Under the pieces are notes generated by a model. The model saw only the letters and a list, made by a program, of their open reading frames with translations. It was not told the DNA's origin and did not search any database. From a virus (Duplodnaviria; Heunggongvirae; Uroviricota; Caudoviricetes): 64,000 bases of DNA. The DNA is taken from the IMG/VR virus record IMGVR_UViG_3300025875_000002, positions 64,001-128,000 of that record; one strand, 5' to 3'. Each line of letters opens with the position of its first letter. The stretch's first letter is position 1. Positions 3,496 through 29,554 of the stretch are shown here, piece by piece. The translations under genes and the position numbers were made by a program.

Positions 3496-3524
3496 TTGAC
3501 CCGGCCCGGTTGATCGGTTAAGCT
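3496..3524 (+). promoter_or_regulatory. promoter TTGACC-17-TAAGCT with AATCTTGA box
   Basis: Box TTGA at 3483, 13 nt before the -35. Confidence 0.75.
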
Positions 3525-3559
3525 AAAGCTACCAAACACCGAGACGAAGGAAAAAGATC

Positions 3560-3790
3560 ATGCGTAAGCTTTCCACCACCGAGACCGCTATGCAAGATCA
3601 GGTTAAGGCCGATCAGCGTGAGAGCTTCAAGATCACGAACACCTCACCGCTTCCCACTTTCGAGGACGGCATTGGGGCCGGTTTTGAGTGGGTCGGTGGA
3701 TCGCTTATGCTTAACTGTGACCCTTTCGCTAAGGTTCACCCTATCCGTTACGCGGGTAGTTTCGGCGGGCGGAATGTGTGGGGACTGTGA
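3560..3790 (+). CDS. hypothetical protein (76 aa)
   Basis: Own promoter and AAGGA RBS. Confidence 0.65.
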   Translation: MRKLSTTETAMQDQVKADQRESFKITNTSPLPTFEDGIGAGFEWVGGSLMLNCDPFAKVHPIRYAGSFGGRNVWGL

Positions 3791-3848
3791 TTGTCATAGG
3801 TCTTTGTGTCCTGTTCGGAATCATCTTTCTAAAAGAAGGGTTTAAGAA

Positions 3849-4013
3849 ATGATTTTTCTCATTCTGTCTGCGCTATTCCTGGCAGGCTTTTTCTCGCTTA
3901 GGCAGTGGGATAAGTGTAATGATTACTCACTCCCCGGTTACGTTTTTGCTGCCGGGATTGTTTGTGGGGTTATGACTATAGTCATGATCGTTTTGTGGGG
4001 CGGCAACGCCTAA
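3849..4013 (+). CDS. small two-TM membrane protein (54 aa)
   Basis: Hand-translated MIFLILSALFLAGFF..YVFAAGIVCGVMTIVMIVLWGGNA. Confidence 0.55.
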   Translation: MIFLILSALFLAGFFSLRQWDKCNDYSLPGYVFAAGIVCGVMTIVMIVLWGGNA

Positions 4014-4032
4014 AAAATCTTGAAGCTAGGGC

Positions 4033-4061
4033 TTGACCCTGGCAGACAGACACGCTAGGCT
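4033..4061 (+). promoter_or_regulatory. promoter TTGACC-17-TAGGCT with AATCTTGA box
   Basis: Box TTGA at 4020, 13 nt before the -35. Confidence 0.75.
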
Positions 4062-4092
4062 TTAGATACACAAACCGATAAGGGAGAACAAA

Positions 4093-4290
4093 ATGAAGCT
4101 GGTCCTCACTTTCTCGCTTGACTCTAACGCTTTCGACGGAGAGGCTGGTGCCGCTGCTGCCGCTGCTAAGCTCCGTGAGGCTGCCGACGCGCTTAGCTGT
4201 ATTGAGGTGCCGTTGGTTGATGCTATGGGCACCGTTCACACCTTCCGTGAGGGTCGGCGTCGGGCGGGTTTCGTCAGCATCGAAAGCTAA
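4093..4290 (+). CDS. hypothetical protein (65 aa)
   Basis: Own promoter and AAGGGAG RBS. Confidence 0.65.
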   Translation: MKLVLTFSLDSNAFDGEAGAAAAAAKLREAADALSCIEVPLVDAMGTVHTFREGRRRAGFVSIES

Positions 4291-4309
4291 AAGATCATGG
4301 CGGGGAGGC

Positions 4310-4338
4310 TTGACAGGGTTGAGCCTCCCCGCTAGACT
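4310..4338 (+). promoter_or_regulatory. promoter TTGACA-17-TAGACT inside a perfect 11-bp IR
   Basis: GCGGGGAGGCT 4300-4310 / AGCCTCCCCGC 4322-4332. Confidence 0.75.
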
Positions 4339-4380
4339 TTGGATAACAGAGAGACACACACACTAACAAAGGAAATCGAA

Positions 4381-4626
4381 ATGGATTCGTGGGGATCGAC
4401 TTTCGAGGAAATTCAGGCCGCTAACGCCGCTCACATGGCACATGAGGAAGCGGAGAATAAGCGCCGTGCACGTCACGCGCTGCTTAACCGCTTTAGTGCG
4501 GCAGAGTCGGATATCGTTGCAATCCTTAAGGATTTTGAGGCTGCTAGCGTGGCCGGTACAGTTGTGCCGCACACCTATCTTGGGATCATGATGCGGATTG
4601 CCGACGCGCTGGACGATAATGGATAA
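4381..4626 (+). CDS. hypothetical protein
   Basis: AAGGA RBS before ATG 4381. Confidence 0.6.
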   Translation: MDSWGSTFEEIQAANAAHMAHEEAENKRRARHALLNRFSAAESDIVAILKDFEAASVAGTVVPHTYLGIMMRIADALDDNG

Positions 4627-4631
4627 GGATA

Positions 4632-4814
4632 ATGGAAATCTTCAAGATCGCGGTGGGATTCACTAATTCCCGCCCGGTTATTCCCGAGGAATTCACTTCC
4701 TTTGTCATCATAGCGGAAGAGAATCTAACGAAAGCTAAAATGGCTGCTGCTCAAATGGTTGGATGCCGCGCCGAAATGGTAACGTCCACTACTCTAATTG
4801 AAGTGAGGATTTAA
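4632..4814 (+). CDS. hypothetical protein (60 aa)
   Basis: AAGGA RBS, operon-like spacing. Confidence 0.6.
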   Translation: MEIFKIAVGFTNSRPVIPEEFTSFVIIAEENLTKAKMAAAQMVGCRAEMVTSTTLIEVRI

Positions 4815-5162
4815 TGGTTTCTGATTATTCCGTGGGCCGGATTGCTACTGGAATTGAGAAGATCGGTAATGCAATGGAAAAGATTGCAAATTCGGTTGCT
4901 AAGGCGGCAGACACCTACGTAAACAATAGCACAACTAAGCGGGCCGGTCAAGAGTGAGATTCTTCCGGGGTCTAGGCTACGCTCTGGTCATGGTCTGGCC
5001 GGTATGGTCGGGACTGTACCTAGCCGTTAGGTAGGCTAGTCGGGCCGGTAGCTTGATCAACAGGCTTAAGGGTAGTCGGGTATAGGAGAGGACAAACCGG
5101 GCCGGTACAGAGCATCTGAGAGGGTATTGACAGACTCACAACAGACAGACTAGGATAAGAGC

Positions 5163-6849: not shown

Positions 6850-7438
6850 GATCTTGATGACGGAAAGTAGTTTCAAGATTTTTGGATTTCCGGTACTGTT
6901 GATCTTCAAACGGACCTATACTTCTCACGTAAGCAAGACACGGACTAGCAGGAGGATAGACAATGGCTCACAGCCGGAACGATGGGTGCGCAGACGGCAC
7001 GGATGTAGTTTGGTATGAGCACGATGCAGCTCTCACAACCGGGGAAGCAATGGCCATCGCGGGGGAAGCGTGCGAGTCGCACCCAATCGACGATGCGGCT
7101 GCCCTGCTGTCGATCAGTGCCACCGACCGTGGGTGATCGCATTTGGTTCGCAGTCTGTAACGGTCTGGTTCCCGCGCTGGTCCTGTTGCTTCTGTTGATC
7201 ATCCTGGTCTGTTCGATCTTCTGATACATGGTCCCCCGGTACCGGTTAACGTTTAGTCGTCCGGTACCGGGGTTGAACCATGATCATTTGGCTTATCTGC
7301 CGGAGTCACTCTCCGTGTTGATCTTGAACAGAAAGTAGTTCAAGAAATTTCTGATTTTGGGTACTGTTGATCTTCGTTCGAACCGATACTTCTAATGTGA
7401 GCGAGAGACGCTCACCACTAGCAGTAGGAGAAATCATG
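6850..7438 (+). repeat. two ~115-bp imperfect direct repeats (6850-6965, 7320-7438) carrying operator-like IR, promoter and RBS
   Basis: Shared GATCTTGA..GAAAGTAGTT..CAAGA..GGTACTGTTGATCTTC..ATACTTCT..ACTAGCAG..AGGA. Confidence 0.8.
6963..7136 (+). CDS. hypothetical protein (57 aa)
   Basis: GGAGG RBS within repeat copy 1; hand-translated open frame. Confidence 0.55.
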   Translation: MAHSRNDGCADGTDVVWYEHDAALTTGEAMAIAGEACESHPIDDAAALLSISATDRG

Positions 7439-7702
7439 TACACCACCACCGCCGACCGTCTCGCTCTCGCCCGCCGGGACGCAGAGCACCTCGACACCTA
7501 CGGCACGCCCGTCCCGCGTGAGGCACGCCGTTTCGCTCTCCGCGCGGTTGCCGCTCTGGTGGGCATCCTCGCCGCTGTCTTCGTCTTCGCGCCGATGATC
7601 GGTCACGCGGAAGACGTGCGGCACTGTCAGACCGTGCACGCAGCCGGTCCGTCCGACGCTCCGGAAGCTCTCCGCTGTGAGTCGGTTCTGTTCGGAAAGT
7701 GA
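7436..7702 (+). CDS. single-TM hypothetical protein, GC-rich
   Basis: AGGAG RBS within repeat copy 2; TM segment FALRAVAALVGILAAVFVFAPM. Confidence 0.65.
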   Translation: MYTTTADRLALARRDAEHLDTYGTPVPREARRFALRAVAALVGILAAVFVFAPMIGHAEDVRHCQTVHAAGPSDAPEALRCESVLFGK

Positions 7703-7791
7703 AAAAAGGGGGCCGGTTGGACTTGACCCAACCGGCCCCCCGGACCGATACTGAGAACACAGCAAGCAACCCACTAGCAGGAGGAATGATC

Positions 7792-8052
7792 ATGTACAGC
7801 TTTGACGCAGACGACAGCCGGGACTACGCGGAGGAGGCCTACTGGTCCAACTACTGCGGGGAGTGTGACGGCACGTGCACGGGACAGCATGATGAGCCCG
7901 CACCATGTGACCGGGTCGGCTGCCTGAACGATTCTCAGATCGGAAACCGCTTCTGTTCGGATGAGTGCGCGGACGTGGTCAACCGGGACAGTGACAACTA
8001 CACGCTGTGCGTGGCCGATGCGTGCGACTGCGAGAGTGATGATCTTGACTGA
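7792..8052 (+). CDS. Cys-rich, very acidic hypothetical protein
   Basis: AGGAGG RBS, TTGACC-18-GATACT promoter; about 10 Cys and many Asp/Glu. Confidence 0.65.
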   Translation: MYSFDADDSRDYAEEAYWSNYCGECDGTCTGQHDEPAPCDRVGCLNDSQIGNRFCSDECADVVNRDSDNYTLCVADACDCESDDLD

Positions 8053-9093: not shown

Positions 9094-9317
9094 CAGATAT
9101 CACTCTTCCACTCTGGACAGACGCCCTCAACACACGAAAGCCCCGGTTGGCTACGAAACATTTCGCTTCCCAACTTTCTTATTGCTTCTTCTTGTGTCTT
9201 AGCGTAGACGCATAAGCTGCCTGAGCCGTGCATACTGTGCTGGTGTCTATCTCTATCCCAGGCTCTCCACATTTGATTGCCCATGAACTCTACTAAGATA
9301 CCGCGAATTTCGTTCAT
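9090..9317 (-). CDS. hypothetical protein
   Basis: GAGGA RBS, overlap with the next ORF. Confidence 0.55.
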   Translation of the reverse strand: MNEIRGILVEFMGNQMWRAWDRDRHQHSMHGSGSLCVYAKTQEEAIRKLGSEMFRSQPGLSCVEGVCPEWKSDIW

Positions 9318-15999: not shown

Positions 16000-16470
16000 T
16001 CCTTCGTTAGATAGATGTACATTCCCCCCCCCCCGTGCCTAGAGAGGTGTATTAGAAGAAATACCTCTCGCTTGAAGAGTCTGCGTCAATGTCACGGATG
16101 AGCCCTCCAAGTCACACGGCTCACCCCTGGGGCCACCGTTTCGAGTATTGAGACGAGCGCTTTACGCTACTTTGAACTGCTCAGTGGGTTCTTCCATTTA
16201 ATTTAACCGGCCGGGGTGGTGGAGACTGGCGGAAGAACTGGGTAAAAGAAGGCCATCTAGCTGGAAGGACATTGACACTTTCCAGGGATTTCTCCACCCC
16301 GATCATTATGTGTCGCTGTTGAACTCAGCGTATAGATATCTCCGTTAGGTTCCGACCTGAGGCAAGCCAGGGCATTATTGCAGCCCGATTCTAACAGAGA
16401 GCTTGGGAATAGAAAAGGCCCCAAACAACCACCGCTTTCGCGGGCCTCATAGGTTGCTTGGGGCTGATGA
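16000..16470 (-). ncRNA. candidate ~470-nt structured ncRNA or 5' leader
   Basis: Promoter TTGCTA-17-TACAAT on the minus strand (about 16506-16478); several stems; no sizeable ORF. Confidence 0.4.
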
Positions 16471-16608
16471 CACTACTATTGTAGCATAAACTTTTGTCCT
16501 TAGCAACCGGTGAGGCTTCCAGTTGAACTTAATAAGACTATACCACGATCCATTTTAAGGTGCAAACGCCGGTTTTGAATCTGAAACTCAGTCTGATATA
16601 CTTCATGT

Positions 16609-18927
16609 ATGCCATATTACTTCGTTACCGAGGAAGACCAAGCAGCAGTGCTGCCGGTTTCCCACCGGCCCATCAGCTCAGATTATATTCTAACAGTAGA
16701 GTTTACTAAGCGCTTTGACCGGTTTAATCCGCAAGTGCCTTTCTTGACTTTGCCAGTAACAGTTTCAGGCAATTACTTGAACATAACACTAACCCAGGCC
16801 CAGGTTAACAGCATCAGAACATCTTATTTTAAGATTAAGGCAGCGAAGCCCGGTACAGAGTTTTATGTAGATAATGGTAAAATATCTTATTCGCCAAAGA
16901 CAGCAACAGCACCAGTAGTTGATGTGGTAACCCAAGAAGAGTTTGATGCAGTTGAAATTCCAACAATAGCAGAGATCGAATCTATTGCCAAGGCAAAGGT
17001 TGCAGCTGACATTGAAGAGGTTTTGCCTTCTAGATTAAGTACAGTGGAACTAAGGGCGGCCTTTGTGCCGCTCCTCGGCCCCGCCAACGGCACGGCCGAC
17101 GCCGCCTGGATCAACGCCAAGATCGCGGGCGGCGGCTACTTCCGGGGCAACCCCGGCGCGACCTACCTGCTGGAGTCGCGCCTCATCGTGCCCTCCAACA
17201 CGCACATCGACTTCACCGGCTGCACCCTGCAGTTCAAGCAGACTCTCACCAGCGGAAACCTCTGCACCAACTACTCGCAGGCCAACCCGAAGTCCGTGGG
17301 CGGAGTAACGGCCAATGTCGGGGACACCACGTTCTACAGCGACACCCCGCTGAGGGGCCAGGTGTCGGTCGGCGACAACATCGTCATCTTCCAGGCGGGT
17401 GTCGACGGCATCCCATTGACCGCGATCGTCACCGCAGTGAACAGCTCCACGTCGGTCACCATCGACCGGCCCATCGCCAAAGCCGTTACCAACACCACCG
17501 CGCGGGTTTACGGCACCGACCACGACATCACCATCCAGGGCGGCGTCTGGAACCGGGGCGCGGTCGGCGGTTACGGAGCCGTCGAAGGCCACGGCCTCAA
17601 CTTCCGGTTCGTCCAGCGGCTGCACGTCGACATCGACGAGTACCACGCGACCGCCGGCACCTACGCCCTCTGCGTCGCCGCCGTCTGGGACTACAAGATC
17701 GGCTGCGGGTGGATGGACAACAAGTCTCTCGACGGCCTGCACGTCATGGGACCCGCCTACGACGGGGAGTGCACTCGCCTCGCCGGGAACACCAACGATG
17801 ACTCCCTCGCGTTGCTCTGCGCCGACGCCATCGGCCCCCTGACCGACGTGGCCGGAGACATCATCGGCTTCACCTGGAACATCGTCCGCACCCAGGCCGA
17901 ACAGTCCATCGTGAAGATCATGTCCGGTCCGGGGCTGACCATCGGCGGCATCCGGGGTGGCATCACGCAGGGCACCTACAAGCTGCGTCACGCCGTCTGG
18001 ATCGGCGAAGACCTCGCCAACCCCGGCGTGATGAAGGGCAACTGGGGCACCATCGACGTCGGCATCATCGATGCCGCACCCGTGGCCGGCTTCAACCAGT
18101 GGGCGCCCCTTGGCCTGCATAGCCCCAACGCCGGGCTGATCAAGGCCACCATCCGCTCCAAGTCCCCGCTCCCCCGCGCCCTGGTCGACACTGCCGGCTC
18201 CACCCCGGTCGTCATCCGCCGCCTCGATCTGGAACTCGACGCGCTCGGCCCGGTCCCGATCCTGCTGGCCACCAACACCAACATGACCATCGACTCGATG
18301 GACGTCCGGGGCCGCTACGACCAAGTGTCCGGCAGCCTGTCTCCGATGCAGATCAGCGCAGGAGCCTGGAACGACATCGACTCCTCCAAGCTGACCTCCT
18401 CGCTGACAGCCCGCACCCTCATCGCGGCCAGCGGCACCGGCAGCTACACCGAGCGCAGCCCCAAGCTGATCATCCCCTTCGTCGGGATGCTCAACCCCAA
18501 CGCCGGGGCGTGGAGCGCCGCCAACCGGGCCGTGTTCGACAGGTTCACGCTCATCACGTCAACCACCCTGCGGTACGTCAACTGGATCGTCAGCACCCAG
18601 TCCGGCAACGTCCAGGTCGGCATCGTCAAGCTGGCCGGCGTCGGCCACGGTGACTACACCGTGGTCATGGACTCCGGTGTGATCCCCTGCCCCGCCGCAG
18701 GGAACATCTGCACCGATCTGGGGGCCAAGACCCTGCCCCCTGGTGACTACGCGGTGTTCCTGTGGGCCGACAACGCCACATTCCAGACCCGTGCCGCTGG
18801 GGCATCCGGGCTGGCCGCGCTGCGGGTGTCAGGCAGCCTCGACGGGCTTGGCACGGGCGTCCAGGCCACCGGGAACTTCTCCTACGGAACCCTGTACTTC
18901 GCCGCAACCGTCGAGGCTGACGTCTGA
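16609..18927 (+). CDS. virion-associated protein: phage N-terminal anchor fused to GC-rich pectin-lyase-like beta-helix/tailspike domain
   Basis: Abrupt AT-to-GC shift at ~17060; beta-helix-type segments (LDGLHVMG, NTNDDSLAL); leaderless promoter 16575-16602. Confidence 0.65.
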   Translation: MPYYFVTEEDQAAVLPVSHRPISSDYILTVEFTKRFDRFNPQVPFLTLPVTVSGNYLNITLTQAQVNSIRTSYFKIKAAKPGTEFYVDNGKISYSPKTATAPVVDVVTQEEFDAVEIPTIAEIESIAKAKVAADIEEVLPSRLSTVELRAAFVPLLGPANGTADAAWINAKIAGGGYFRGNPGATYLLESRLIVPSNTHIDFTGCTLQFKQTLTSGNLCTNYSQANPKSVGGVTANVGDTTFYSDTPLRGQVSVGDNIVIFQAGVDGIPLTAIVTAVNSSTSVTIDRPIAKAVTNTTARVYGTDHDITIQGGVWNRGAVGGYGAVEGHGLNFRFVQRLHVDIDEYHATAGTYALCVAAVWDYKIGCGWMDNKSLDGLHVMGPAYDGECTRLAGNTNDDSLALLCADAIGPLTDVAGDIIGFTWNIVRTQAEQSIVKIMSGPGLTIGGIRGGITQGTYKLRHAVWIGEDLANPGVMKGNWGTIDVGIIDAAPVAGFNQWAPLGLHSPNAGLIKATIRSKSPLPRALVDTAGSTPVVIRRLDLELDALGPVPILLATNTNMTIDSMDVRGRYDQVSGSLSPMQISAGAWNDIDSSKLTSSLTARTLIAASGTGSYTERSPKLIIPFVGMLNPNAGAWSAANRAVFDRFTLITSTTLRYVNWIVSTQSGNVQVGIVKLAGVGHGDYTVVMDSGVIPCPAAGNICTDLGAKTLPPGDYAVFLWADNATFQTRAAGASGLAALRVSGSLDGLGTGVQATGNFSYGTLYFAATVEADV
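17046..17065 (+). repeat. left junction site L, GGAACTAAGGGCGGCCTTTG (copy 1)
   Basis: 20/20 identical to 26796-26815; sits at the composition boundary. Confidence 0.9.
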
Positions 18928-19193
18928 CCCATCGGTGATTGGCTTGAAGCAGACCGCTCGGCGAGCGACCCATCCAACCGACCCTTCCAAGTCAAGGCAG
19001 GCCGTTCGACCAAGAACCAACTCAGGCACGCCGCGGTGATGGTGGCGGGAAAGGACAACAGGGCGACAGCTGTCCGGTCGTGAATTCCTACGCTTAGCCA
19101 GTCGCGTGAGCCGCTCTTTCCGCGACTCCGTGGCTGGCCCCATGCCGTGGAGTTTACGCAGTCGATCCGGAGCAACTCGCCCGGCGGGTGCGT

Positions 19194-19210
19194 CTAAGGG
19201 GGCGCTTCGT
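19194..19210 (+). repeat. right junction site R, CTAAGGGGGCGCTTCGT (copy 1)
   Basis: 17/17 identical to 28071-28087; GC-rich tract ends here. Confidence 0.9.
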
Positions 19211-19217
19211 ACTAGTC

Positions 19218-19250
19218 AACAAAGCACACCGTTCTAAGGTGTGCTTTGTT
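19218..19250. terminator. intrinsic terminator
   Basis: AACAAAGCACACC-loop-GGTGTGCTTTGTT followed by ATTTT. Confidence 0.8.
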
Positions 19251-19369
19251 ATTTTGTGACATAAAATAACTTGAACGTTCTAAATCCATAAACTCAGCGG
19301 GTGTATACTTAAGAGACTAAATTCAAGGAAGAAGCCCCACTGTAGGCGGGGCTTAGGAGGGTACATTAT

Positions 19370-21316
19370 ATGAGTATTATGGACGATATGGGCGTACTGC
19401 GCGACCCGTACAAGGCATTCATTGCTGTGTCTCGTTACGCTCGTTGGGACGATGATCTTGGTCGCCGCGAGGTATGGAGTGAGACAGTTAAGCGTTATGT
19501 GGACTACATGCATAACCACATGGATAAGAATTACCCGGGAGCCATCAATGATGACTTCTGGCCCCGCGCGTATGACACAATTGCAAACCACAAGGTAATG
19601 GGCTCAATGCGTGCCCTGATGACCGCCGGTCCAGCATTGGACCGTAGTCACGTAGCAGGATACAACTGTTCATTCATTACGATTGACCACCCACGCGCAT
19701 TCGATGAGTCGCTATACATTCTCATGAATGGAACCGGACTTGGTTTCAGTGCTGAGAAGAAATATACCTCAAAGCTGCCGGTTGTAAATGAGCACTTTGA
19801 GCACACTAAGACTGTAGTAAAGGTACAAGACAGTAAGGAAGGTTGGGCACGTGGGCTTCGTGAACTTATTGCCATGCTCTATGTTGGACAGATTCCTGCA
19901 ATTGATATTACGGCACTTCGTCCAGCGGGAGCAAAGCTTAAGACATTCGGAGGTCGCTCATCGGGACCACAGCCACTTGTCAATCTATTCGATTTCGTCA
20001 TCGAAACATTCAAGCGTGCCGCTGGAAGACAGCTTACGCCTCTTGAATGTCATGACATTATGTGCAAGATTGGAGAGGTTGTGGTTGTCGGTGGAGTACG
20101 ACGTTCGGCCCTAATCAGTCTAGGTGACTTAGACGACTACGATATGGCAAAGGCAAAGAGCGGTTCATGGTGGGAAGCAAACCCACAGCGCGCACTTGCT
20201 AACAACTCTGCAACATATTACAAGAAGCCAAGCATCGGAGAGTTCCTTTCAGAATGGAAGAACTTGTACGAGTCTAAGTCTGGTGAACGCGGTATTGTTA
20301 ACATGGAAAACATGCAGAAGGCAGCGTACGCACCTCGCCGTGACGGTAGCAAGCTCATGGGTACTAACCCATGTGGAGAAATTTCTTTGAGGCCATACCA
20401 GTTCTGCAATTTGACCGAGGTCATTATTGAAGAGAGTGATACAGAAGAAACGTTGTTGGAGAAGGTTGAAATTGCTACTATTCTTGGTACCATTCAGTCT
20501 TCATTCACCAACTTCAAGTACCTACGTAAGATTTGGAGAGACAACTGTGAAGAAGAAAGACTCTTGGGAGTTTCGCTCACTGGGCAATTCGGAAACAAGC
20601 TCACGTCCGGACTTTTGGGTCTCGACAAGCTATCTGACACCCTTGACGCACTCAGGGAAAAGTCAATTGAGACGAACAGCGTTGTTGCAGACGCAATGGG
20701 GATCAACCGTTCTACGGCAATCACTACGGTCAAGCCTTCGGGAACAGTTTCACAGCTTACCGGTACGTCTTCGGGAATGCACCCTTGGCACAACGATTTC
20801 TACATTCGTTCAGTACGCCAAGACAATAAGGACCCACTAACAAGGTTCTTGTCAGACGCCGGCATTCCAAATGAGCCAGATGTAATGAAGCCAAACGACA
20901 CAACAGTCTTTTACTTCCCACAGAAGGCACCGGAAGGCGCGGTTACTAGAATGCATATTAGTGCAATAGAACACCTAGAGTTCTGGAAGATTTACAAGGA
21001 GCACTGGACTGAGCACAATCCAAGTGTAACGATCAATGTGCGCGAGGACGAATGGGTAGCAGTCGCTGACTGGGTTTACAAGAATTGGGATGTAGTTGGA
21101 GGAATCAGCTTCCTTCCTTATTCTGAGCACACCTATCAGCAGGCACCATATCAGGACACAGACGAGTCTGGATACAACCAGTTTGTTGCTGACATGCCAG
21201 CTTCAATTGATTGGTCTATCTTGCCATTCTATGAGTCAGAGGACAACACCTCTGGTTCACAGACACTGGCTTGCGTAGCTGGGGCTTGCGAACTAGTTGG
21301 ATCGGCTGACAAGTAA
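19370..21316 (+). CDS. nrdJ: class II (adenosylcobalamin-dependent) ribonucleotide reductase
   Basis: YNCSF, TNPCGEI, FCNLTEV, TTVKPSGTVSQL, C-terminal CVAGACEL; no R2 subunit adjacent. Confidence 0.9.
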   Translation: MSIMDDMGVLRDPYKAFIAVSRYARWDDDLGRREVWSETVKRYVDYMHNHMDKNYPGAINDDFWPRAYDTIANHKVMGSMRALMTAGPALDRSHVAGYNCSFITIDHPRAFDESLYILMNGTGLGFSAEKKYTSKLPVVNEHFEHTKTVVKVQDSKEGWARGLRELIAMLYVGQIPAIDITALRPAGAKLKTFGGRSSGPQPLVNLFDFVIETFKRAAGRQLTPLECHDIMCKIGEVVVVGGVRRSALISLGDLDDYDMAKAKSGSWWEANPQRALANNSATYYKKPSIGEFLSEWKNLYESKSGERGIVNMENMQKAAYAPRRDGSKLMGTNPCGEISLRPYQFCNLTEVIIEESDTEETLLEKVEIATILGTIQSSFTNFKYLRKIWRDNCEEERLLGVSLTGQFGNKLTSGLLGLDKLSDTLDALREKSIETNSVVADAMGINRSTAITTVKPSGTVSQLTGTSSGMHPWHNDFYIRSVRQDNKDPLTRFLSDAGIPNEPDVMKPNDTTVFYFPQKAPEGAVTRMHISAIEHLEFWKIYKEHWTEHNPSVTINVREDEWVAVADWVYKNWDVVGGISFLPYSEHTYQQAPYQDTDESGYNQFVADMPASIDWSILPFYESEDNTSGSQTLACVAGACELVGSADK

Positions 21317-21406
21317 GCAATGTCATGGCCGTCCTCCGGGGCGGCTTTTGACATTTTAGGACGAGAAGAGTATATTGAAGGTGTGAGAAATGAGGAGGTG
21401 AATTAA

Positions 21407-22384
21407 ATGGTAGCATCACAGAATGGATGGAGAGCAAATGACCGAACAGTCATTGCTAGTATTGACGTGCCCGGAGGGAAGCTAGCCGTACGCAAGGGAA
21501 GCATTGGAGTAATTTTCCAGCACCTTGCAAATAGGTTTCACAACGAAGTAGAAAAGCTAGTTTGGCCGGGTAACTGGGGATATGCAGAGCGCGAAGTGCG
21601 TGGAGGAACTGATTTGTCAAATCATGCTTCCGGAACGGCAATTGATCTAAATGCTCCGAAGCATCCACTTGGCACAGCACCAAGTGCAAATTACAGCGCC
21701 GCACAGATCAACAAGATTCACGAAATTGTAAACTTCTACGAAGGAATCATTCGTTGGGGCGGTGACTATGTTGGGCGAAAGGACGGCATGCATTTTGAGA
21801 TTAACGATGGAATTAATGAAACTCAGGTTGATCGTATTGCAAGTAAGTGTATGACGGCGACACCTAAGTTTACGGTTACCGGCGCATTCTTGGAAGGCGC
21901 TAACAGGTATGGACGCGCAGGTAATCCTGTCAACGCAGAAGGATTCACCCGTGACGGACTGGGCCGGGTACAGACCTTTGAGCACGCTATTGCACTGTGG
22001 CACAAAGAGCGCACGGGGGCAAAGGCTTACTTTGTTTCTATCCCAGGAGCAATCTATGATTACTGGCGTGGACGCGGCGCAGAGGATCCAGAGAATCCAA
22101 CTTCACTTGGCTATCCAGTATCAGACGACGCAGTCTGGCAGGATGGAAAGGGTGTTGGACAGGTCTTTGAGCGTGGTCTCATTGTATGGGGCCCCGACAC
22201 GGGAGTTCATGCCGTAGTCGGACCAATTAGGGATACGTGGGAGTATCTAGGCGCCGAAAGGAATCTAGGTTATCCAGTCAATGACCAACGTCCAGAAGGA
22301 TCTTCTTTCAGACAAGCGTTCCAGCGTGGTGACCTTGTCGAAGATTTGAATGGCAAGGTTGTTATGTTTGCGAAGAAGTTCTGA
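21407..22384 (+). CDS. endolysin: M15-type peptidase plus LGFP-like repeats
   Basis: SQNGW..SNHASGTAIDLNA..RWGGDY..DGMHFEI; C-terminal LGYPVSD/LGYPVND and Q.F.RG repeats. Confidence 0.85.
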   Translation: MVASQNGWRANDRTVIASIDVPGGKLAVRKGSIGVIFQHLANRFHNEVEKLVWPGNWGYAEREVRGGTDLSNHASGTAIDLNAPKHPLGTAPSANYSAAQINKIHEIVNFYEGIIRWGGDYVGRKDGMHFEINDGINETQVDRIASKCMTATPKFTVTGAFLEGANRYGRAGNPVNAEGFTRDGLGRVQTFEHAIALWHKERTGAKAYFVSIPGAIYDYWRGRGAEDPENPTSLGYPVSDDAVWQDGKGVGQVFERGLIVWGPDTGVHAVVGPIRDTWEYLGAERNLGYPVNDQRPEGSSFRQAFQRGDLVEDLNGKVVMFAKKF

Positions 22385-22568
22385 TTCTGATATAATACAG
22401 GTACAACCTTCGGGGACTGCGCGGCTTGTGGGCCGATTGACAGACTGATAGTTGTTGGGTCAGTTCGTGCGAATTGATCTACCTTAGGAATGGTTATTGA
22501 AGTTACCGGCAAAACCTCGCTTCGGCGAGGTTTTTGCTGTTTCATGGGTAGGGTGTTACAATTGTTTT

Positions 22569-24035
22569 ATGAATTATGAATTAGAGATCCGTAAGAGCAA
22601 CCCGGCGGTGTTTAATAACTTGACTGGCGCGCTGCCTCCGCTTGTGGCCGGTGCAGGATCGGCTAGCTTGATAACTACTCCCATAATAACTCCATTTTCA
22701 GCATGGACTAATGGAAAAGAGCGCCAGTCCTTTAGTGTAGAGGTTTGGCATCTCCCAACAGTTAATGGTTTGGTGATTGGACATTCAGACGAAGGTGTTT
22801 TCTTTGAAGATGGCAGCTACAGATTAAGGCTTAACTTTAATGATGCTACCTTCACAGAAGGCATTTGGCCCGCCCCGGAAGTTAAGTCTCGTCACGTGGT
22901 CATAACTTATGACTCATCAAGGTTTTCACTATATGTAGACGGCATTAACGTTATTTCACTAGATGTGCCTAGCCTGGTTACTTTTGAAGCTGCCAGTGAA
23001 CCAATTACTACCGGCACTGGCATTTATGATTCGCTAGCACTTTACTACAGAGTATTGACACCGGAAGATATTAGTATCCATTATTCTTGGGGCCATGACG
23101 CAATGAGCTTTATAACTATTGCTAGTACTAAGGGTGCGTCAGCATTCACTTTGGCTTTTAATGATGTAGACGTTTATGATGCAGTTGTGTTCGATTCAAC
23201 AAATTGGAATCAAGGTCTCTTGACAAACATAACGTCTACCGATCCATTGACTACAACCTTAACTGGTGCAACTTGGGACACAATGATTCCGTTGGGAGCA
23301 TTTCAAGATGTTACTCCTGGCGTTTATCTTTCTTGGGCGGGACGTGGAGTTGTGGTTCGGTATTCATTGGACGGAAGCGCTTGGACGGCAGCAACCAATA
23401 GATCAACCATCTTAGAAGACGTTGATCTGACTGATGTTGTTCTTTATATAAGAATGGAACTAGAGGTTAATGGGTTTGTTGATAATTTGAAGTTGTATTT
23501 GCTGGCTGATCGTGTTATGCAACCGTACAGCGGCACCCGGTTGCTTACTTTCAAATCCGCATCAATGGACGAAACGCCCGGTCATCAGTTGGAATATCAA
23601 GCCGACCAAGGTGCAACCATCCATGGGGGATATATACAAATTGAACCTGATCTTACTGGAGCACACGCTCATAGCATAAGAACTATTGAAATGTGGGCAA
23701 AGTCAAGCACGCCGATAACCATATCGGCGCCGGTACAGACTACTTATCGTAATGGAGTAGTAAGCAGTACATTTGATGGGCAGTGGGCACACTATGTGTT
23801 TGTTCTAACCGCAGCAACTAACGACCCAATTAAAATTGCTAATGGACAGACCTTAAGCGTAGGCACGCTAGCCGCATACTCTGATCCGCTTACAGCATCC
23901 AAGATCAGTACTTTGTATAGCCTAAATATTGGCGCTGCACCAATACAAATGATTGATTCTGGAACAATTGGTGTTACGGAATCAAGCCCCGCGTTTGATG
24001 TTTATGCCTACACTTGGGCCATTGTTTCCGGCTGA
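22569..24035 (+). CDS. LamG/concanavalin-like domain structural protein
   Basis: FSVEVW..HVVITYD..LYVDG..DSLALY; start supported by promoter TTGCTG-17-TACAAT 6 nt upstream. Confidence 0.7.
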   Translation: MNYELEIRKSNPAVFNNLTGALPPLVAGAGSASLITTPIITPFSAWTNGKERQSFSVEVWHLPTVNGLVIGHSDEGVFFEDGSYRLRLNFNDATFTEGIWPAPEVKSRHVVITYDSSRFSLYVDGINVISLDVPSLVTFEAASEPITTGTGIYDSLALYYRVLTPEDISIHYSWGHDAMSFITIASTKGASAFTLAFNDVDVYDAVVFDSTNWNQGLLTNITSTDPLTTTLTGATWDTMIPLGAFQDVTPGVYLSWAGRGVVVRYSLDGSAWTAATNRSTILEDVDLTDVVLYIRMELEVNGFVDNLKLYLLADRVMQPYSGTRLLTFKSASMDETPGHQLEYQADQGATIHGGYIQIEPDLTGAHAHSIRTIEMWAKSSTPITISAPVQTTYRNGVVSSTFDGQWAHYVFVLTAATNDPIKIANGQTLSVGTLAAYSDPLTASKISTLYSLNIGAAPIQMIDSGTIGVTESSPAFDVYAYTWAIVSG

Positions 24036-24100
24036 CGGGTAAAAATGTGTCACGGGTGTACCATATTTGCATATAAGATAAAGCGTGTTAGTATGAGTCT

Positions 24101-24436
24101 ATGAGTAATTTAAAGGCTGTGCAGCAGGGTATTCCATATGGAGTGTATGTTTGGCGCATCGACGGTAAGGCCGTGGTTAATGAAAATTTAGAATATCTTC
24201 AAATTGCCTCTCGGCGCGGCGATCTACTTAAGATCGCTGCGTTAAAGAAGTTTGTTAATGACGTACTCGACATCCACGAAGGCGAAGCATTCTTTGAAGA
24301 GGGTAGTCGCCCAATTAGCCATGAAGAGTGGGAAGACCAGATGGCTCGCCAGCGCAATGGTGAAGTTCCAGATCCTTACGACCTCGGTAACCTTATCGAA
24401 GAATATAATTATGAAAGAGGGATTGATAATAAGTGA
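24101..24436 (+). CDS. conserved protein upstream of portal
   Basis: Leaderless promoter; overlaps the portal start. Confidence 0.7.
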   Translation: MSNLKAVQQGIPYGVYVWRIDGKAVVNENLEYLQIASRRGDLLKIAALKKFVNDVLDIHEGEAFFEEGSRPISHEEWEDQMARQRNGEVPDPYDLGNLIEEYNYERGIDNK

Positions 24437-26094
24437 CTAGGAGAGCAGTTGACGACGATGAGTTGTCAGCTTTTGACAATATTTCAGCCAAGGTAATTGG
24501 CGACGGTGAGAGGGTGCTCGTCACCGACATTGTCGATCCTTTTTCACTTTCTGGTGACAACCTGCGTAAGGTGCAGGGCCTTGACCCAAATGCCAAGCGC
24601 CGCCGGTCTCGCAAGCTAGAAAAGTCTTATACAGGCCACGAAGACTCAGGCACAAAGCGTGATGAGATAGAAGGACAAGTAGACGCTTACAATTTGTTTG
24701 GTGTGGTTCTTCCTAAGTACAACATGGACTACCTTGCCAAGATTTATGAAATGAGTGCTCCTCACTACGCGGCAGTTAAGGCAAAGGTTGCAAACATCGC
24801 CGGTCTAGGGTTTGATTTTACTCTTACTCATGCTATGCAACGTAAGATGGCAGCAGCAGATGATGCCAAGAAGGAGCGTATGCGCAAGCAGCTAGACAAC
24901 ATGAAGGAAGATGTTTATAGCTGGCTAGATGACACAAACGCAGAAGACACTTTTTCTGAAACTCTAATCAAGGTTTGGACCGACTACGAGACCATGGGTA
25001 ATGGATACATCGAAATTGGTCGCACAAACTCTGGTCAAGTCGGCTATATCGGTCACATTCCAGCTTCTACCATGCGCGTGCGCAAGGAACGTGATGGCTT
25101 CGTACAAATGGTTTCTAATCGTGTTAAGTTCTTCCGTAACTTTGGTGAAGACACCGCAGACCAGCTAGGCAATGATTTTCGACCAAATGAGATCATTCAT
25201 ATCAAAAAGTACAGCCCAACAAACCAGTTTTATGGAGTGCCAGACATTGTCGCTGCTCAGCAGGCAGTAGTTGGTAACGAATTCGCATCTAGATTTAATC
25301 TAGATTACTTTGAAAACAAGGCCGTTCCTCGCTATGTTATTGTAGTTAAGGGAGGATCGTTCAGCGCCGCCGGTGAGCAGAATTTGCTAGAGTTCTTTGA
25401 GACAGGACTAAAGGGGAAGAATCACCGTACCATTTACATTCCTTTACCAGCGGATGAACAGGATCGAAAGGCTAGTTTCGAAATGAAGCCGGTTGAGGCC
25501 GGTACTCAGGATTCTAGTTTCGTTAACTACCGCCGGGGCAATCTGAGTGATATTCTTATGGCACACCGTGTTCCAGTATCTAAGGTTTCAATGGCAGAGA
25601 ACGTTAGCCTTGCTGCATCTAGAGATGCAGATAAGAACTTCAAGGAACAGGTTTGTCGTCCAGAACAGAAGATGTTTGAAAAGAAGATCAATAAGATCAT
25701 AGGCGAAGTTACTGATGTGTTCCGTCTAAAGCTAAATGAGCTTGTCCTAACCGATGAAGATACTCAAAGCAAGATTGACGAGCGTGATCTTCGTTGGGGC
25801 AAGACTACCGTTAATGAGATTCGTGCAGCTCGTGGAGAATCACCTCTTCCTTGGGGAGATGAGCGTTCACAGCTACCTTCACAGGCGGTTGACCCAGAAA
25901 CTATGGCGCTACAGCAAAAGCAGGCCAAGACTCAGGCAGATGCAGCTAAGGCCGCCGCCAAGGCACCAGCTAATGCAGAAGCTAATGCACAGCAGGCAGG
26001 TACACGTACGCGAGACGCCGAGCGTTCAGCAGGAGCAACCGATTCAGCCGGGGAGGGAAGAAATGAGCAAGGATCAGGTAGGACAGCTGCGTAA
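24433..26094 (+). CDS. portal protein
   Basis: DYETMGNGYIEIGR..HIPASTMR..EIIHIKKYSP..YGVP..FENKAVP; position before protease and capsid. Confidence 0.9.
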   Translation: MTRRAVDDDELSAFDNISAKVIGDGERVLVTDIVDPFSLSGDNLRKVQGLDPNAKRRRSRKLEKSYTGHEDSGTKRDEIEGQVDAYNLFGVVLPKYNMDYLAKIYEMSAPHYAAVKAKVANIAGLGFDFTLTHAMQRKMAAADDAKKERMRKQLDNMKEDVYSWLDDTNAEDTFSETLIKVWTDYETMGNGYIEIGRTNSGQVGYIGHIPASTMRVRKERDGFVQMVSNRVKFFRNFGEDTADQLGNDFRPNEIIHIKKYSPTNQFYGVPDIVAAQQAVVGNEFASRFNLDYFENKAVPRYVIVVKGGSFSAAGEQNLLEFFETGLKGKNHRTIYIPLPADEQDRKASFEMKPVEAGTQDSSFVNYRRGNLSDILMAHRVPVSKVSMAENVSLAASRDADKNFKEQVCRPEQKMFEKKINKIIGEVTDVFRLKLNELVLTDEDTQSKIDERDLRWGKTTVNEIRAARGESPLPWGDERSQLPSQAVDPETMALQQKQAKTQADAAKAAAKAPANAEANAQQAGTRTRDAERSAGATDSAGEGRNEQGSGRTAA

Positions 26095-26421
26095 AGGTGA
26101 ATACATCATTAGTAGAAAGACTCTAGGGGAAAGACTCTTGGAGTCAGCAACTCAGGCGGTTGATTCAGACGAGCCAAACAAGTCATGCATTAGGGGACCA
26201 CATGAGACCACAGAAGAAGAGTAACCTGCCCGGTTGCATAAGGAGGAAAAATGCTAAAACTACTCTTATTAATCATACTAGTAGTACTGTTAACCGCACT
26301 GATCGCTAGTGCTTACACTGGACTACAATCCTGGAGAAGAAGTAATAGGTACGTTGATCCAGAGAAGAGAAATACAAACCTAAAGTTATGACTTTGGAGA
26401 AAAATGAGGTAAAATATAACC

Positions 26422-28065
26422 ATGTCAACAGCATCATTTACAACCCGCGCCGGTAGCCCGGCCGGTACAGTAGCATACGTCGCCCCGGTAGCAGGAGCCA
26501 CTTACACGGTAGAGTTTTCAAGAAACAGTTCATTCAGAACTATTCTTATTACAAAGCCTGTAATTCTAAATGATAATGCCGTAACCATTTCAATGACAGC
26601 AGCAGAGGTCGACCAGCTAGGAGACGGTTATTACAGAGTTAGAGCTACCAAGGACGATAGAGTTTGGACTCTTGTAGATGGATCAATTGATTATATTCCT
26701 AAGGCTAAGACTACTGGATTAACTGTTGCTGATGTTGTTTCAGACCCTGTTTTTATTGACGCAATTCCAACTGCTGCTGAATTAGCTGCATCACCGGAAC
26801 TAAGGGCGGCCTTTGCGCCACGCGGCCTGCGCAACCTGCCAGGCATGTACCCGCTGGGAGCACGCGCCGGAATCGGCCAGGGCTTCATCGGGACCATCAG
26901 CGGCCAGGACAATCGCTACCGCGTCACTGTCCCGTTCCAGACCAACGAGGTCCGCCTCGTGTACACCAACTGGATCGGCCCTGGCACCGCCGAACGCGAC
27001 GGCACCGCCGACCTCGTCGTGCGCGCCGGGATCGAGATGCCCGACGGCAGCTTCCGGGCGGTCTACTTCGCCGGGCAGAGGGACGTGCGCATCGGCATCG
27101 GCGGGTCTGCTGTCAGCGACCCCGTGGCCGTCGAGCACGCCGGGCCAACCGACCCCAGCCCGTTCCTCTACGTGCGCACCAAGGTCACGGCCTACACCGC
27201 CGGCACGTCGACCCTCGCGCCCGGATCGATCCCGCAGGGTCCACTCATGACCGCCACAGGCGAAGGCACCGACTCCGACCCGGCTGGCGATGTCACCACC
27301 TCCGGCACCGTCGGATCGACGTACAACTTCATGTACGTCCCCGCCGTCGTTGCGGGCAACTGCACTGACGCCGCCCCGATCATCGCCCTGATCGGGGACA
27401 GCATCACCCTGGGCAAGAACGACGGACCCGACAACTACGGCTGGGGCGCCCGTGCCGCCGAAGCTGCTCGACTGCCCTACCTGAAGCTTGCCGAGGGCGG
27501 GGTTCAGGCGCAGTACGTCTCGGTGCCCAACGGCCACGCGCGCACGTTCGCACTGGGCACCGGAGCTACCGACGCGCTGGTCATGCTCGGGACCAATGAC
27601 CTGGGAACGGCCACAGTTTCCGGGGGAGTCATCACCGCCGTGCAGATCTACCTGTACCGGATCTGGCTCGCGTGGTCGCGTCGCGGCGCCCGGGTTCGCG
27701 CCTGCACCCTGGTGCCCCGCGCAACGTCAACCGACTCCTGGGCGACCCTGGGCAACCAGACGCCCATGGCCAGCAATCCGGCTCGCATCATCATCAACGA
27801 CTGGATTCGCGCCGGTGCCCCGCTCGACGCCGCGACCAAGGCACCGGCTGCGGTCGGTGCGCCCGGCTCCATTGTCGCGGGGCAGACCGGACACCCGCTG
27901 GTCGGCTACATCGACACCGCAGATGCTGTCGAATCGGCCCGCAACTCGGGGCTGTGGATCGTCAACGGGTCGGCCAACTACGCGACCTCCGACGGAACCC
28001 ACCCCGGAGGTACGGCCTACGGCCTCATCGCGGCCAAGGTGCCCACTGCGGCGTTCACCGCCTGA
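26422..28065 (+). CDS. virion-associated protein: phage anchor domain fused to GC-rich SGNH/GDSL hydrolase
   Basis: GDSIT, LGTND, DGTHP catalytic blocks; N-terminus paralogous to 16609; AT-to-GC shift at ~26810. Confidence 0.75.
   Translation: MSTASFTTRAGSPAGTVAYVAPVAGATYTVEFSRNSSFRTILITKPVILNDNAVTISMTAAEVDQLGDGYYRVRATKDDRVWTLVDGSIDYIPKAKTTGLTVADVVSDPVFIDAIPTAAELAASPELRAAFAPRGLRNLPGMYPLGARAGIGQGFIGTISGQDNRYRVTVPFQTNEVRLVYTNWIGPGTAERDGTADLVVRAGIEMPDGSFRAVYFAGQRDVRIGIGGSAVSDPVAVEHAGPTDPSPFLYVRTKVTAYTAGTSTLAPGSIPQGPLMTATGEGTDSDPAGDVTTSGTVGSTYNFMYVPAVVAGNCTDAAPIIALIGDSITLGKNDGPDNYGWGARAAEAARLPYLKLAEGGVQAQYVSVPNGHARTFALGTGATDALVMLGTNDLGTATVSGGVITAVQIYLYRIWLAWSRRGARVRACTLVPRATSTDSWATLGNQTPMASNPARIIINDWIRAGAPLDAATKAPAAVGAPGSIVAGQTGHPLVGYIDTADAVESARNSGLWIVNGSANYATSDGTHPGGTAYGLIAAKVPTAAFTA
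26796..26815 (+). repeat. left junction site L (copy 2)
   Basis: Identical to 17046-17065. Confidence 0.9.
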
Positions 28066-28070
28066 CGGCA

Positions 28071-28087
28071 CTAAGGGGGCGCTTCGT
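28071..28087 (+). repeat. right junction site R (copy 2)
   Basis: Identical to 19194-19210; 5 nt after the payload stop codon. Confidence 0.9.
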
Positions 28088-28204
28088 GCCAGCGCGTGAC
28101 ACGGCGACACGGGGAGCTGTTGCCCAGCCTTATCTAACTGATGAAATGGTGTTTTGATACCATTAAATTTTGCATTAAGAAAAGAACAATGGTATATTAC
28201 AAAT

Positions 28205-29554
28205 ATGAAGATTGAGAAGGCAAATTGGCAGAGCGAGGGCGATAGCCTACGCATTACAATGCCATTGCAGAAGGTTGATGTTGAAAAGCGCATCGTTTCT
28301 GGTTTTGCTACTCTCGACAACGAAGATTTGCATGGTGACGTTGTAACTAAGGAAGCTTCTAATAAGGCTTTTGAGCGTTTTCGTGGTAACATTCGCTTGA
28401 TGCACCAGCCAATCCCGGCGGGTAAGTTAGTTAACTTTCGTGAGGAAGAATATTACGATTCAAAGACCGAAAAGCTGTACCGTGGAATTTACGTTGATGC
28501 GTACGTTTCTAAGGGTGCTCCTCAGGTTTGGGAAATGGTTCTAGATGGAACTCTAACGGGCTTCTCAATTGGCGGAAACGTTAAGGATGCTAAGACCGAG
28601 TTCTCTAAGGATGCAAACAAGCAGGTTCGTTACATTAAGGATTACGAGATGGTTGAGCTTTCACTCGTTGACAACCCAGCTAATCAGCTATCAAACATTT
28701 TCAGTATTCAAAAGTCAGCCGATGGAGACACTACGGTTGAAGGCATGATCACAAAGGTCGATGCTGAAAACGTATTCTACTGCAAGAAGGAGCACGACCC
28801 GGTAGCCCTTGTTGGCGCTGAGGAAAGCAAGAATTGCGTAGAGTGCGGCGCCGAGATGAAGAACATCGGATGGTTTGAAAGCGATGGCGGTGACAGAGCA
28901 GAAAAGGTTAACTCCATCGTGGAAAAGTTTGAATCTGATTCAGTTGAGGGAGGTGAAAACATGGCAAAAGCAAAGGTAATTGAAGACAAGACTGTGCAGG
29001 AGCTTGCAGAGGATGAGTCAACTACGGTTGAAACTGCCGAGGAAGTAACCCCTAAGGGTGATGAGACAGTAATCGCACCGGAAGGTGAAGAAGCTGCTTC
29101 TGCTACTAATGTAGAAGACGTAAACGTTACCGTAACAGGTACGGGTGAGTCTAAGACAGAAGAGGCTAAGGAGCTTAACGAGGCCACAGCAATCGCAGAC
29201 GGTACAGAGGCAGAAAACCCTCTAACCAAGATGTTTGAGGAACTAAGCGCGAGCATTCAGAAGTCTCTTGACGCTAATAGTGAAAAGACTGCATCAATCG
29301 TTGCAGAGGCAACCGCCGGTTTCGAAAAGAAGCTAGGCGAACTTGCTGAAAAGCACGATGAGCTTAGCAATAAGTTTGGCACACTGACTGAGAAGTTCCA
29401 GGAAGTTGAGAAGTCTCTAGAAGTTGTAGAGCAGTCGGGTGCAATTAAGAAGTCTGCGGACCTTGGCGGGGACGCAGGAGATTCTTCTCTACAGAAGAGT
29501 AATGAAAAGAGAGTTTGGAAGGGTTCTATCTTCTCATCAGCTGTAATAGGCTAA
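28205..29554 (+). CDS. capsid maturation protease fused to acidic/coiled-coil scaffold
   Basis: RIVSGFAT..D.HGDVV..MHQ..TGFSIGG..ELSLVDNPAN; leaderless promoter TTGCAT-17-TATATT. Confidence 0.9.
   Translation: MKIEKANWQSEGDSLRITMPLQKVDVEKRIVSGFATLDNEDLHGDVVTKEASNKAFERFRGNIRLMHQPIPAGKLVNFREEEYYDSKTEKLYRGIYVDAYVSKGAPQVWEMVLDGTLTGFSIGGNVKDAKTEFSKDANKQVRYIKDYEMVELSLVDNPANQLSNIFSIQKSADGDTTVEGMITKVDAENVFYCKKEHDPVALVGAEESKNCVECGAEMKNIGWFESDGGDRAEKVNSIVEKFESDSVEGGENMAKAKVIEDKTVQELAEDESTTVETAEEVTPKGDETVIAPEGEEAASATNVEDVNVTVTGTGESKTEEAKELNEATAIADGTEAENPLTKMFEELSASIQKSLDANSEKTASIVAEATAGFEKKLGELAEKHDELSNKFGTLTEKFQEVEKSLEVVEQSGAIKKSADLGGDAGDSSLQKSNEKRVWKGSIFSSAVIG

Follow-up and report, generated by a model that had tools for sequence, protein, structure and literature searches.

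How a low-GC phage came to carry two genes with strongly GC-rich 3' portions, both joined in frame to the phage's own sequence at one and the same short DNA motif, is the question raised by the locus described here. The window analysed was a stretch of 64,000 nucleotides (nt), bases 64001 to 128000 of a 133,294-bp metagenomic virus record (IMGVR_UViG_3300025875_000002), and all coordinates below are window positions. The whole genome had a guanine-plus-cytosine (GC) content of 47.5% and contained only two GC islands longer than 600 bp, at 17001-19200 (66% GC) and 26801-28100 (69% GC). Both islands began inside a 20-nt motif, L (GGAACTAAGGGCGGCCTTTG), which read in frame as ELRAAF and was present as exact copies at 17046-17065 and 26796-26815, and each was accompanied by a downstream 17-nt motif, R (CTAAGGGGGCGCTTCGT), with exact copies at 19194-19210 and 28071-28087 and nowhere else in the genome. 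The two genes, designated gene 1 and gene 2, are chimeras; their C-terminal payloads were imported recently, as judged from an unameliorated third-position GC (GC3), and L and R are borders shared with phages of the donor type. With moderate confidence, the payloads are considered to have been acquired by short-homology exchange between co-infecting phages at these conserved border motifs.

GC3 rose at L from 0.38 to 0.91 in gene 1 and from 0.28 to 0.86 in gene 2, and the fusions read ...VELRAAFVP... and ...PELRAAFAP..., respectively. Gene 1 and cassette 1, situated in a slot upstream of the ribonucleotide reductase (RNR) gene, comprised the following features.

16575-16602, plus strand: native low-GC DNA with a promoter-like site for gene 1: TTGAAT and TATACT, 16 nt apart, the latter preceded by TG
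16609-18927, plus strand: gene 1, open reading frame (ORF) for a chimeric anchor-plus-enzyme protein of 772 amino acids (aa), identical in contig L109
16609-17045, plus strand: native N-terminal part of gene 1 (GC3 0.38), Ig-like (immunoglobulin-like) beta-sandwich anchor and helical linker (...LPSRLSTV)
17046-17065, plus strand: L1, 20-nt left border motif (ELRAAF), inside which the composition switches
17066-18927, plus strand: payload 1 (GC3 0.91), right-handed beta-helix, tailspike-depolymerase-like module
18928-19193, no strand assigned: 266 nt of imported GC-rich DNA (64%) from the stop codon to R1, apparently non-coding (highest frame GC3 0.73)
19194-19210, plus strand: R1, right border motif, at the last base of which the GC-rich DNA stops
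19218-19250, plus strand: intrinsic terminator, a 13-bp stem followed by a run of T, in phage DNA of low GC (folding z-score -3.95)

Seven bases separated the end of R1 from the start of the terminator. Logan contig L109 (run SRR6241621, 3478 nt) had 100% identity to 16432-19909 and spanned both junctions of cassette 1; because this independent contig was identical across both, the cassette 1 chimera is not an assembly artefact. Gene 2 and cassette 2 comprised the following.

26422-28065, plus strand: gene 2, ORF for a chimeric anchor-plus-esterase protein of 547 aa, between the portal and prohead protease genes
26422-26795, plus strand: native N-terminal part of gene 2 (GC3 0.28), Ig-like beta-sandwich (aa 1-92) and short helices
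26796-26815, plus strand: L2, 20-nt left border motif, an exact match to L1 (ELRAAF)
26816-28065, plus strand: payload 2 (GC3 0.86), beta-sandwich and SGNH/GDSL esterase module
28071-28087, plus strand: R2, right border motif identical to R1, 5 nt past the stop codon, matched over 38 nt by the R region of L008, a high-GC contig (E 1e-6)
28088-28127, plus strand: 40 nt of GC-rich flank brought in from the donor beyond R2

These data bore out most of the anatomy proposed by an earlier sequence-only reading, namely a composition jump at L with an in-frame ELRAAF fusion in ORF 16609-18927, GC-rich DNA running past the stop of cassette 1 to end at R just before a terminator, and identical recurrence of both motifs (26796 and 28071) around an unrelated payload 10 kb away; its wider claim, that the C-termini are foreign modules joined at fixed, recurring borders, also stood. 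The same reading took R as the edge of the GC-rich DNA in cassette 1, which was correct there; in cassette 2, R is not a composition boundary, since GC-rich DNA continues about 40 nt past R2, to about 28127. No further copy of L was found in the window at up to 3 mismatches (0 of 100 shuffles matched) or in the remainder of the 133,294-bp genome, and allowing mismatches revealed no extra copy of R in the genome.

The N-terminal domains of genes 1 and 2 were paralogues (33% identity, E 4e-12), and the two payloads had unrelated folds. The best relative of payload 1, P0004, was 35% identical and carried K1-lyase_C; the atlas structures matched by this payload included a Tail_spike_N (TSP1/Gp66) protein cluster and a capsule K1 depolymerase, with template modelling (TM) scores of 0.62-0.70. 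Payload 2 matched the profile phrog_8480 (E 9e-40), and its GDS (residues 325-327), D524 and H527 were invariant in an alignment with its relatives. A profile built from the two N-terminal domains matched 96 cluster representatives ranging from 88 to 3477 residues, indicating one anchor combined with many different C-termini. In an AlphaFold (AF2) model of the gene 2 N-terminal domain, with a predicted local distance difference test (pLDDT) value of 92, residues 1-92 formed the Ig-like beta-sandwich, followed by short helices, and ELRAAF lay in the last linker helix. Foldseek matches of the anchor included a baseplate chain of mycobacteriophage Douge (8zdo_a, E 7e-5), tail-tip chains of T5 and DT57C, a BFVD LtfC/p132/Gp6-domain beta-sandwich protein, and minor tail proteins of Microbacterium phages. 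As the anchor fold is generic, attachment to the virion can be deduced from such matches only as a probability: genes 1 and 2 probably encode virion-attached enzymes, accessory fibre or spike proteins. The anchor domains had no tblastn match in isolated phages, and, in a word-based search, the gene 1 anchor recovered no orthologue, only the gene 1 protein itself. In contig L119, the anchor and linker of gene 1 had an orthologous counterpart (78% nucleotide identity), in which a native continuation (SLNNSFP...) began exactly where L begins.

The anchor genes of other phages carried the same motifs. The high-GC phages compared were G001 (contig L005/L006, 69% GC, 49.7 kb) and the complete phages G002 and G003 (G003/L024). 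In G001, the exact L 20-mer was present in two anchor-domain paralogues beside the portal and a MuF-like gene; these were near-identical up to L and unrelated after it, one continuing into an SGNH esterase and the other into a short tail. Family members recruited by protein similarity alone (L013, L014, L016 and L017, 66-69% GC) possessed L with at most 2 differences in 20, and a scan with a degenerate L located the motif also in fibre-like genes with other N-termini (L019/L027, L023 and L024). L013 and L014 diverged directly after L, and L019 and L023, with different N-termini, had nucleotide similarity that started exactly at L. Carriers of L with up to 2 mismatches were the window (twice), L005/L006, L013-L017, L019/L027, L023 and L024, with backbones of 44-71% GC and differing N-termini; in this gene family the motif typically ends the linker as ELRAAF or ELRAAS. 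Two further chimeras, in low-GC or mid-GC phages, crossed a composition gap: L015 joined a 48% GC anchor through an ELKAAF form of L to a 70% GC payload, with an R-like site that ended exactly where low-GC DNA resumed, and L120-122 joined an anchor of about 50% GC through a 13-nt L core (AGGGCGGCCTTTG) to a 70% GC payload.

R occurred in two forms, form one (...GCACTRAGGGGGCGCTWCGT) in the window, L008, G002 and G003, and form two (R-II, CCCRCTGCCCCWGAGGGGCCGCTYWGWCGCAG), usually 5-12 nt past the stop codon, in G001, L013 and L017. Sites identical or similar to R lay 5-726 nt past the payload stop in the window (two), L008, G002, G003/L024, L015, G001 (three), L013 and L017; L023 and L120 had no R. 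In G001 (two pairs), G002 and G003, each L was followed on its own strand by one R, at a distance of 1.2-2.7 kb. The three R-II copies in the 49.7 kb of G001 were all in the anchor-gene region, one per L plus a site (R2 of G001) between the pairs; G001 also had one unassociated match to the R form of the window, with 3 mismatches. The modules between L and R included a beta-helix depolymerase, several unrelated SGNH esterases, a pectate-lyase-like module (L013), and others. An exact R match in L007 fell inside an unrelated coding region and was discarded as probably due to chance.

Several minor observations concern these sites. A 13-nt string, GCAACTCGCCCGG, stood immediately left of R in cassette 1 (window 19160-19193) and, inverted, immediately left of R3 in G001 (L005 reverse strand, about 9105-9125 in reversed coordinates); the sharing is too specific for chance and may be the trace of a rearrangement at R. 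The block between R1 and R2 of G001 (L005 reversed coordinates 3400-5030), flanked by direct R copies, included one small ORF for a cysteine-rich, zinc-finger-like product, and was preceded by three copies of an operator-like palindrome, TGTCATGACA. The MuF-like head gene of this contig (L005 5988-7748, minus strand) contained an apparent intein-like insertion (Cys ... SNC signature), as judged by sequence alone.

Conservation of L was not confined to the protein. In the high-GC contigs, the shares of the relevant codons within their families were 16% for GAA, 7% for AGG, 5% for TTT, 6% for TCT and 2% for CTA; L nevertheless retained GAA, AGG and TTT or TCT there. Because these codons are rare in the carrier contigs, the codon set of L was improbable given its amino acids, with P of about 4e-5 at most sites (range 2e-6 to 9e-4). 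Moreover, the DNA flanking L and R was unalignable between carriers, the conservation of the motifs exceeding that of their surroundings. These findings support the view, already put forward in the sequence-only reading, that the nucleotide sequence of L is conserved more strictly than its protein-coding role would require.

The portal protein was 55-59% identical to those of Streptomyces BE-cluster phages, e.g. Coruscant and Samisti12, and the surrounding gene order matched; on account of this identity and gene order, the host is very probably a high-GC actinobacterium. In the corresponding loci of 80 relatives (portal plus and minus 10 kb), neither L (up to 3 mismatches), nor ELRAA in any frame, nor a GC island was found. 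The sequence-only reading had named two outcomes that would speak against it, absence of L and R from orthologous loci and donors already equipped with both, and each was observed: L and R are missing from the loci of the relatives, and phages of the donor type carry them around payloads of their own. Among the relatives, the slot upstream of the RNR gene was hypervariable; it held anchor-domain genes with native low-GC payloads in L030 and L031, whereas in Coruscant it held only a glycosyltransferase gene. A hairpin just 5' of the RNR start (19330-19350, GCCCCACTGTAGGCGGGGC) was also present upstream of RNR in L030/L031 and may be regulatory. Gene 2 was wholly missing from the closest relative, L029 (82% portal identity), in which the portal gene, a small membrane ORF and the protease gene are adjacent. 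In the window, a small hydrophobic ORF (about 46 aa, 26250-26391) lies between the portal gene and gene 2; its L029 counterpart, between portal and protease, is similar in size and character, the nucleotide match covering only the upstream ORF that overlaps the portal gene.

As to the donors, neither locus was matched in a megablast search of 50,697 phage records, and tblastn-confirmed scans of IMG/VR with both payloads gave no relatives. Exact L was missing from 185,579 species genomes, and degenerate L matched nine times, about the nine expected by chance, always in unrelated proteins. An origin of the payloads in host or prophage DNA, as supposed in the sequence-only reading, was accordingly rejected, bacterial genomes having yielded chance-level matches to L only. 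Because high-GC phage contigs do carry L and R, the donors, so far as the genomes searched can show, would be high-GC phages and not host chromosomes. Some of the high-GC phages with L and R came from the same metagenomes (3300025875 and 3300004213) as relatives of the present phage.

Recombination within L and R is proposed because these short sequences are common to phages that differ widely in GC content; the route of recombination, and the direction and timing of transfer, we infer from the patterns described above. The anchor and helical linker are native to the low-GC phage and the catalytic module is a recent import, which would have come from high-GC actinobacterial phages. L and R would represent the conserved left and right borders of an exchangeable C-terminal segment in this gene family, L being the end of the linker in the coding sequence and R non-coding DNA after the payload, and recombination of co-infecting genomes within both would replace the whole module in frame. 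The enzymes may be those of general homologous or short-homology recombination, supplied by the phage, which encodes a RecA-like (RecA-family) protein and a PD-(D/E)XK nuclease, or by host functions; the RecT family was not found in this phage. Such exchange is supported by family similarity that starts or stops at L and by donor-type phages that already have the order L, payload, R. The right junction was variable: it coincided with the end of R in two cases (cassette 1 and L015), lay 40 nt past R in cassette 2, and in L120 had no R beside it.

Several observations weigh against this explanation. A motif of 20 nt is short for RecA-type recombination. No near-identical donor was found for either payload, the best protein relatives being 35-37% identical, and the low-GC relatives examined were without L, which leaves its first entry into low-GC anchor genes unexplained. 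The left junctions of three or four independent chimeras agree to within a few nt, and the right breakpoint is common to cassette 1 and L015, where it falls on the final base of R; such precision would also fit a site-specific reaction. L and R are themselves alike (16/22 in direct and up to 18/24 in inverted orientation) and partly palindromic, with 9-nt arms around a 6-nt G+C spacer, resembling the core of a recombinase site. R is also repeated in an arrangement reminiscent of a cassette array, as a tandem (R0-R) in L013 and as R1, a 1.65-kb small-ORF block and R2 in G001.

An alternative is that L and R are att-like core sites of a dedicated, integron-like cassette system distributed across actinobacterial phages of any GC content, in which a recombinase of an unrecognised family, from a co-infecting phage or the host, inserts and excises C-terminal enzyme cassettes at L and leaves R as a diverged copy. 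This alternative is judged unlikely. In its favour is the likeness of the two motifs. The sequence-only reading was right about a shared 7-nt core, and the likeness extends beyond it: in the 64 kb of the window, R2 was the sole other member of the 24-nt L repeat family, with 79% identity, and a 24-nt L query had R sites among its best genome-wide matches, top-scoring in G001 and G003, so that L and R are among each other's best matches. Imperfect inverted arms (GGMACTAAG / CTTYGTGCC) were present in F-type L sites, i.e. those encoding ELRAAF, and in R-I sites; the sequence formed by R and its 3' flank (...CTTTGTCGCAG) repeats the L flank found in L005-b and L014, short forms that lack a payload; and the repeated R copies, the precise left junctions, the common right breakpoint and the rare codons retained in L would all suit a recombination site. 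However, the spacers differ (GGCGGC in L versus GGGGCG in R), whereas attL and attR from one tyrosine-recombinase event share their overlap; ELRAAS-type (S-type) L sites lack palindromy; and the distance from stop to R (5-726 nt) and the position of the right junction vary. Nor was an enzyme apparent, as no Phage_integrase (PF00589), Resolvase (PF00239) or RVT_1 match was obtained in the 133-kb genome and no Phage_integrase or Resolvase in the complete L- and R-bearing phages G002 and G003, an integrase being present only in G004 (37% complete). A shared machinery gene was sought and rejected: matches with G001-G003 were limited to HNH-like ORFs, a tape-measure segment and a few other ORFs, and outside the HNH-like family no gene of this phage matched all three. 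The dedicated recombination or templated mechanism invoked in the sequence-only reading, which would use an integrase, serine recombinase or reverse transcriptase, hence found no counterpart, and a dedicated, undescribed machine is neither needed nor shown. If a dedicated enzyme did act on L and R, it would constitute a new kind of mobile-cassette system.

Two other site-directed arrangements were considered. A diversity-generating retroelement had no RVT_1 match and no long direct repeats involving the payloads. An invertible segment of the Mu (Gin/gix) or P1 (Cin/cix) kind was rejected, no resolvase or invertase having been found, 18928-19193 having no coding-like antisense frame and the minus-strand SGNH gene of G001 being separated from R3 by a stop, having its own start and not being fusable.

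A further alternative, also held to be unlikely and somewhat weaker, is illegitimate recombination at random junctions followed by selection for functional in-frame fusions, with L kept as a structural linker motif plus a rare-codon cluster that slows translation at the domain boundary, and R brought along in the donor DNA as a regulatory element, a terminator and/or a promoter. It would account for the wide xLRAAF/Y protein motif and for the position of ELRAAF in the last linker helix of the model, and GAA, CTA, AGG and TTT are indeed rare in the high-GC contigs; yet these codons are not rare in the low-GC phage, where L is identical, and random joining would not make the left junctions of three or four independent chimeras fall within a few nt of one another. 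With respect to R, R-II has a GCCCC-WGA-GGGGC hairpin followed by a TTAGAC-like hexamer, and the downstream motif of E. coli phages is a predicted terminator (PMC10408124). However, R is not a general terminator, since only three copies were present in a 49.7-kb contig, all beside anchor genes, and R regions folded insignificantly. As a structured RNA, R was rejected, its folding energies being no better than those of shuffles (z -1.0 to +1.3), and 16000-29000 had no Rfam match. The ideas that R supplies a ribosome-binding site and a start codon, or that translation starts internally at L, were rejected because the pattern was inconsistent between copies.

It is improbable that a homing nuclease cut in or near L or R of a co-infecting genome and that repair from the other phage co-converted the payload. 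HNH-like ORFs are the main genes shared with G001-G003, an HNH_3/HTH gene lies two genes upstream of the anchor gene in L013, and partly palindromic sites of 20-24 nt suit such nucleases, but no nuclease gene lies inside or adjoins either cassette in the window, and genomes with homing nucleases are normally without an intact target, whereas L is intact in donors and recipients.

That metagenome assembly joined contigs of different phages at shared k-mers, as might be suspected for a metagenomic virus record when L is common to high-GC phages and when relatives of this phage and high-GC L/R contigs share the metagenomes named above, is very improbable, given that an independent assembler reproduced the 3478 nt across both cassette 1 junctions and that the reading frame is kept through L in both fusions. 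The architecture recurs in L015 and L120-122, which come from other data sets (L120-122 from three separate runs), and R, at only 17 nt, is below usual assembly k-mers.

Short-homology exchange at border motifs has a precedent, so that the system is less novel than the sequence-only reading, which did not recognise it as described, had supposed. In lytic E. coli phage genera, conserved DNA motifs flank the tailspike receptor-binding domain, one at the end of the N-terminal anchor coding sequence and a second, about 20 nt and non-coding, after the gene, and both have been proposed as recombination hotspots (Pas et al. 2023, Virol J, PMC10408124). The likeness lies in motifs conserved across unrelated phage groups with differing modules between them, and the difference in a left motif of 20 nt with at most 2/20 changes, nearly invariant, versus 44-95 nt with 63-81% identity in the E. 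coli tailspikes (PMC10408124). Similar putative hotspots have been discussed for Klebsiella phages (bioRxiv 10.64898/2026.05.12.724579). Unlike in the E. coli tailspike system, L retains codons rare in its carriers and resembles R, the exchange crosses a gap of about 20 points of GC, which makes the junctions resolvable to the nucleotide, the hosts are actinobacterial, and the loci lie beside the portal and RNR genes and not in the tail module.

The distal tail-fibre genes of T-even phages reportedly swap adhesins at conserved motifs termed His boxes, as described by Tetart and colleagues in 1998. These resemble L in being short conserved sequences within an ORF that serve as crossover points for the in-frame replacement of host-range determinants, whereas His boxes repeat inside the variable domain and encode a metal-binding repeat, and here a single border motif stands on each side, the right one non-coding. 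Likewise, the PeSL (promoter/stem-loop) elements of T4-type phages, said to have been described by Arbiol and colleagues in 2010 as mobile regulatory cassettes, are short conserved repeats at gene borders thought to drive cassette shuffling by homologous recombination; they are intergenic promoter-terminator units bounding whole genes, whereas L is inside an ORF and joins protein domains. With shufflons (Rci/sfx) and the Mu G and P1 C segments, the present genes share a constant N-terminal part followed by alternative C-termini at a short in-ORF site conserved as DNA, and with integrons they share cassettes bounded by related, imperfectly palindromic sites; unlike all of these, they have no cognate recombinase gene and no inverted alternative cassette, and the spacers of L and R differ.

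Phage host range depends largely on the enzyme or binding module carried by the fibre. A low-GC Streptomyces-type phage would here have taken two such modules from high-GC phages at borders kept by both groups, so that the border-motif model, put forward for module exchange in enterobacterial phages, would apply to actinophages too. What distinguishes the present case is that the exchange spans a GC gap, that L keeps rare codons, that L and R are alike and that the loci lie outside the tail module. Border motifs can evidently persist against strong codon bias, and this persistence is evidence that either the capacity for exchange or the DNA site itself is under selection. The L/R pair could be used to measure the minimal homology for domain swapping and to mine metagenomes for module repertoires.

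Elsewhere in the window, a third, shorter GC-rich patch was located at 7401-8000 (63.5% GC over about 600 nt of a low-GC genome). Between the RNR and portal genes, as in Coruscant, were an endolysin gene (21407-22384; PHROG endolysin families) and a gene for a LamG-domain protein (22497-24035). Long 9-nt periodic repeats at 34500-35600 (families D1-D3) encoded collagen-like Gly-X-Y triplets, presumably as part of a fibre gene.

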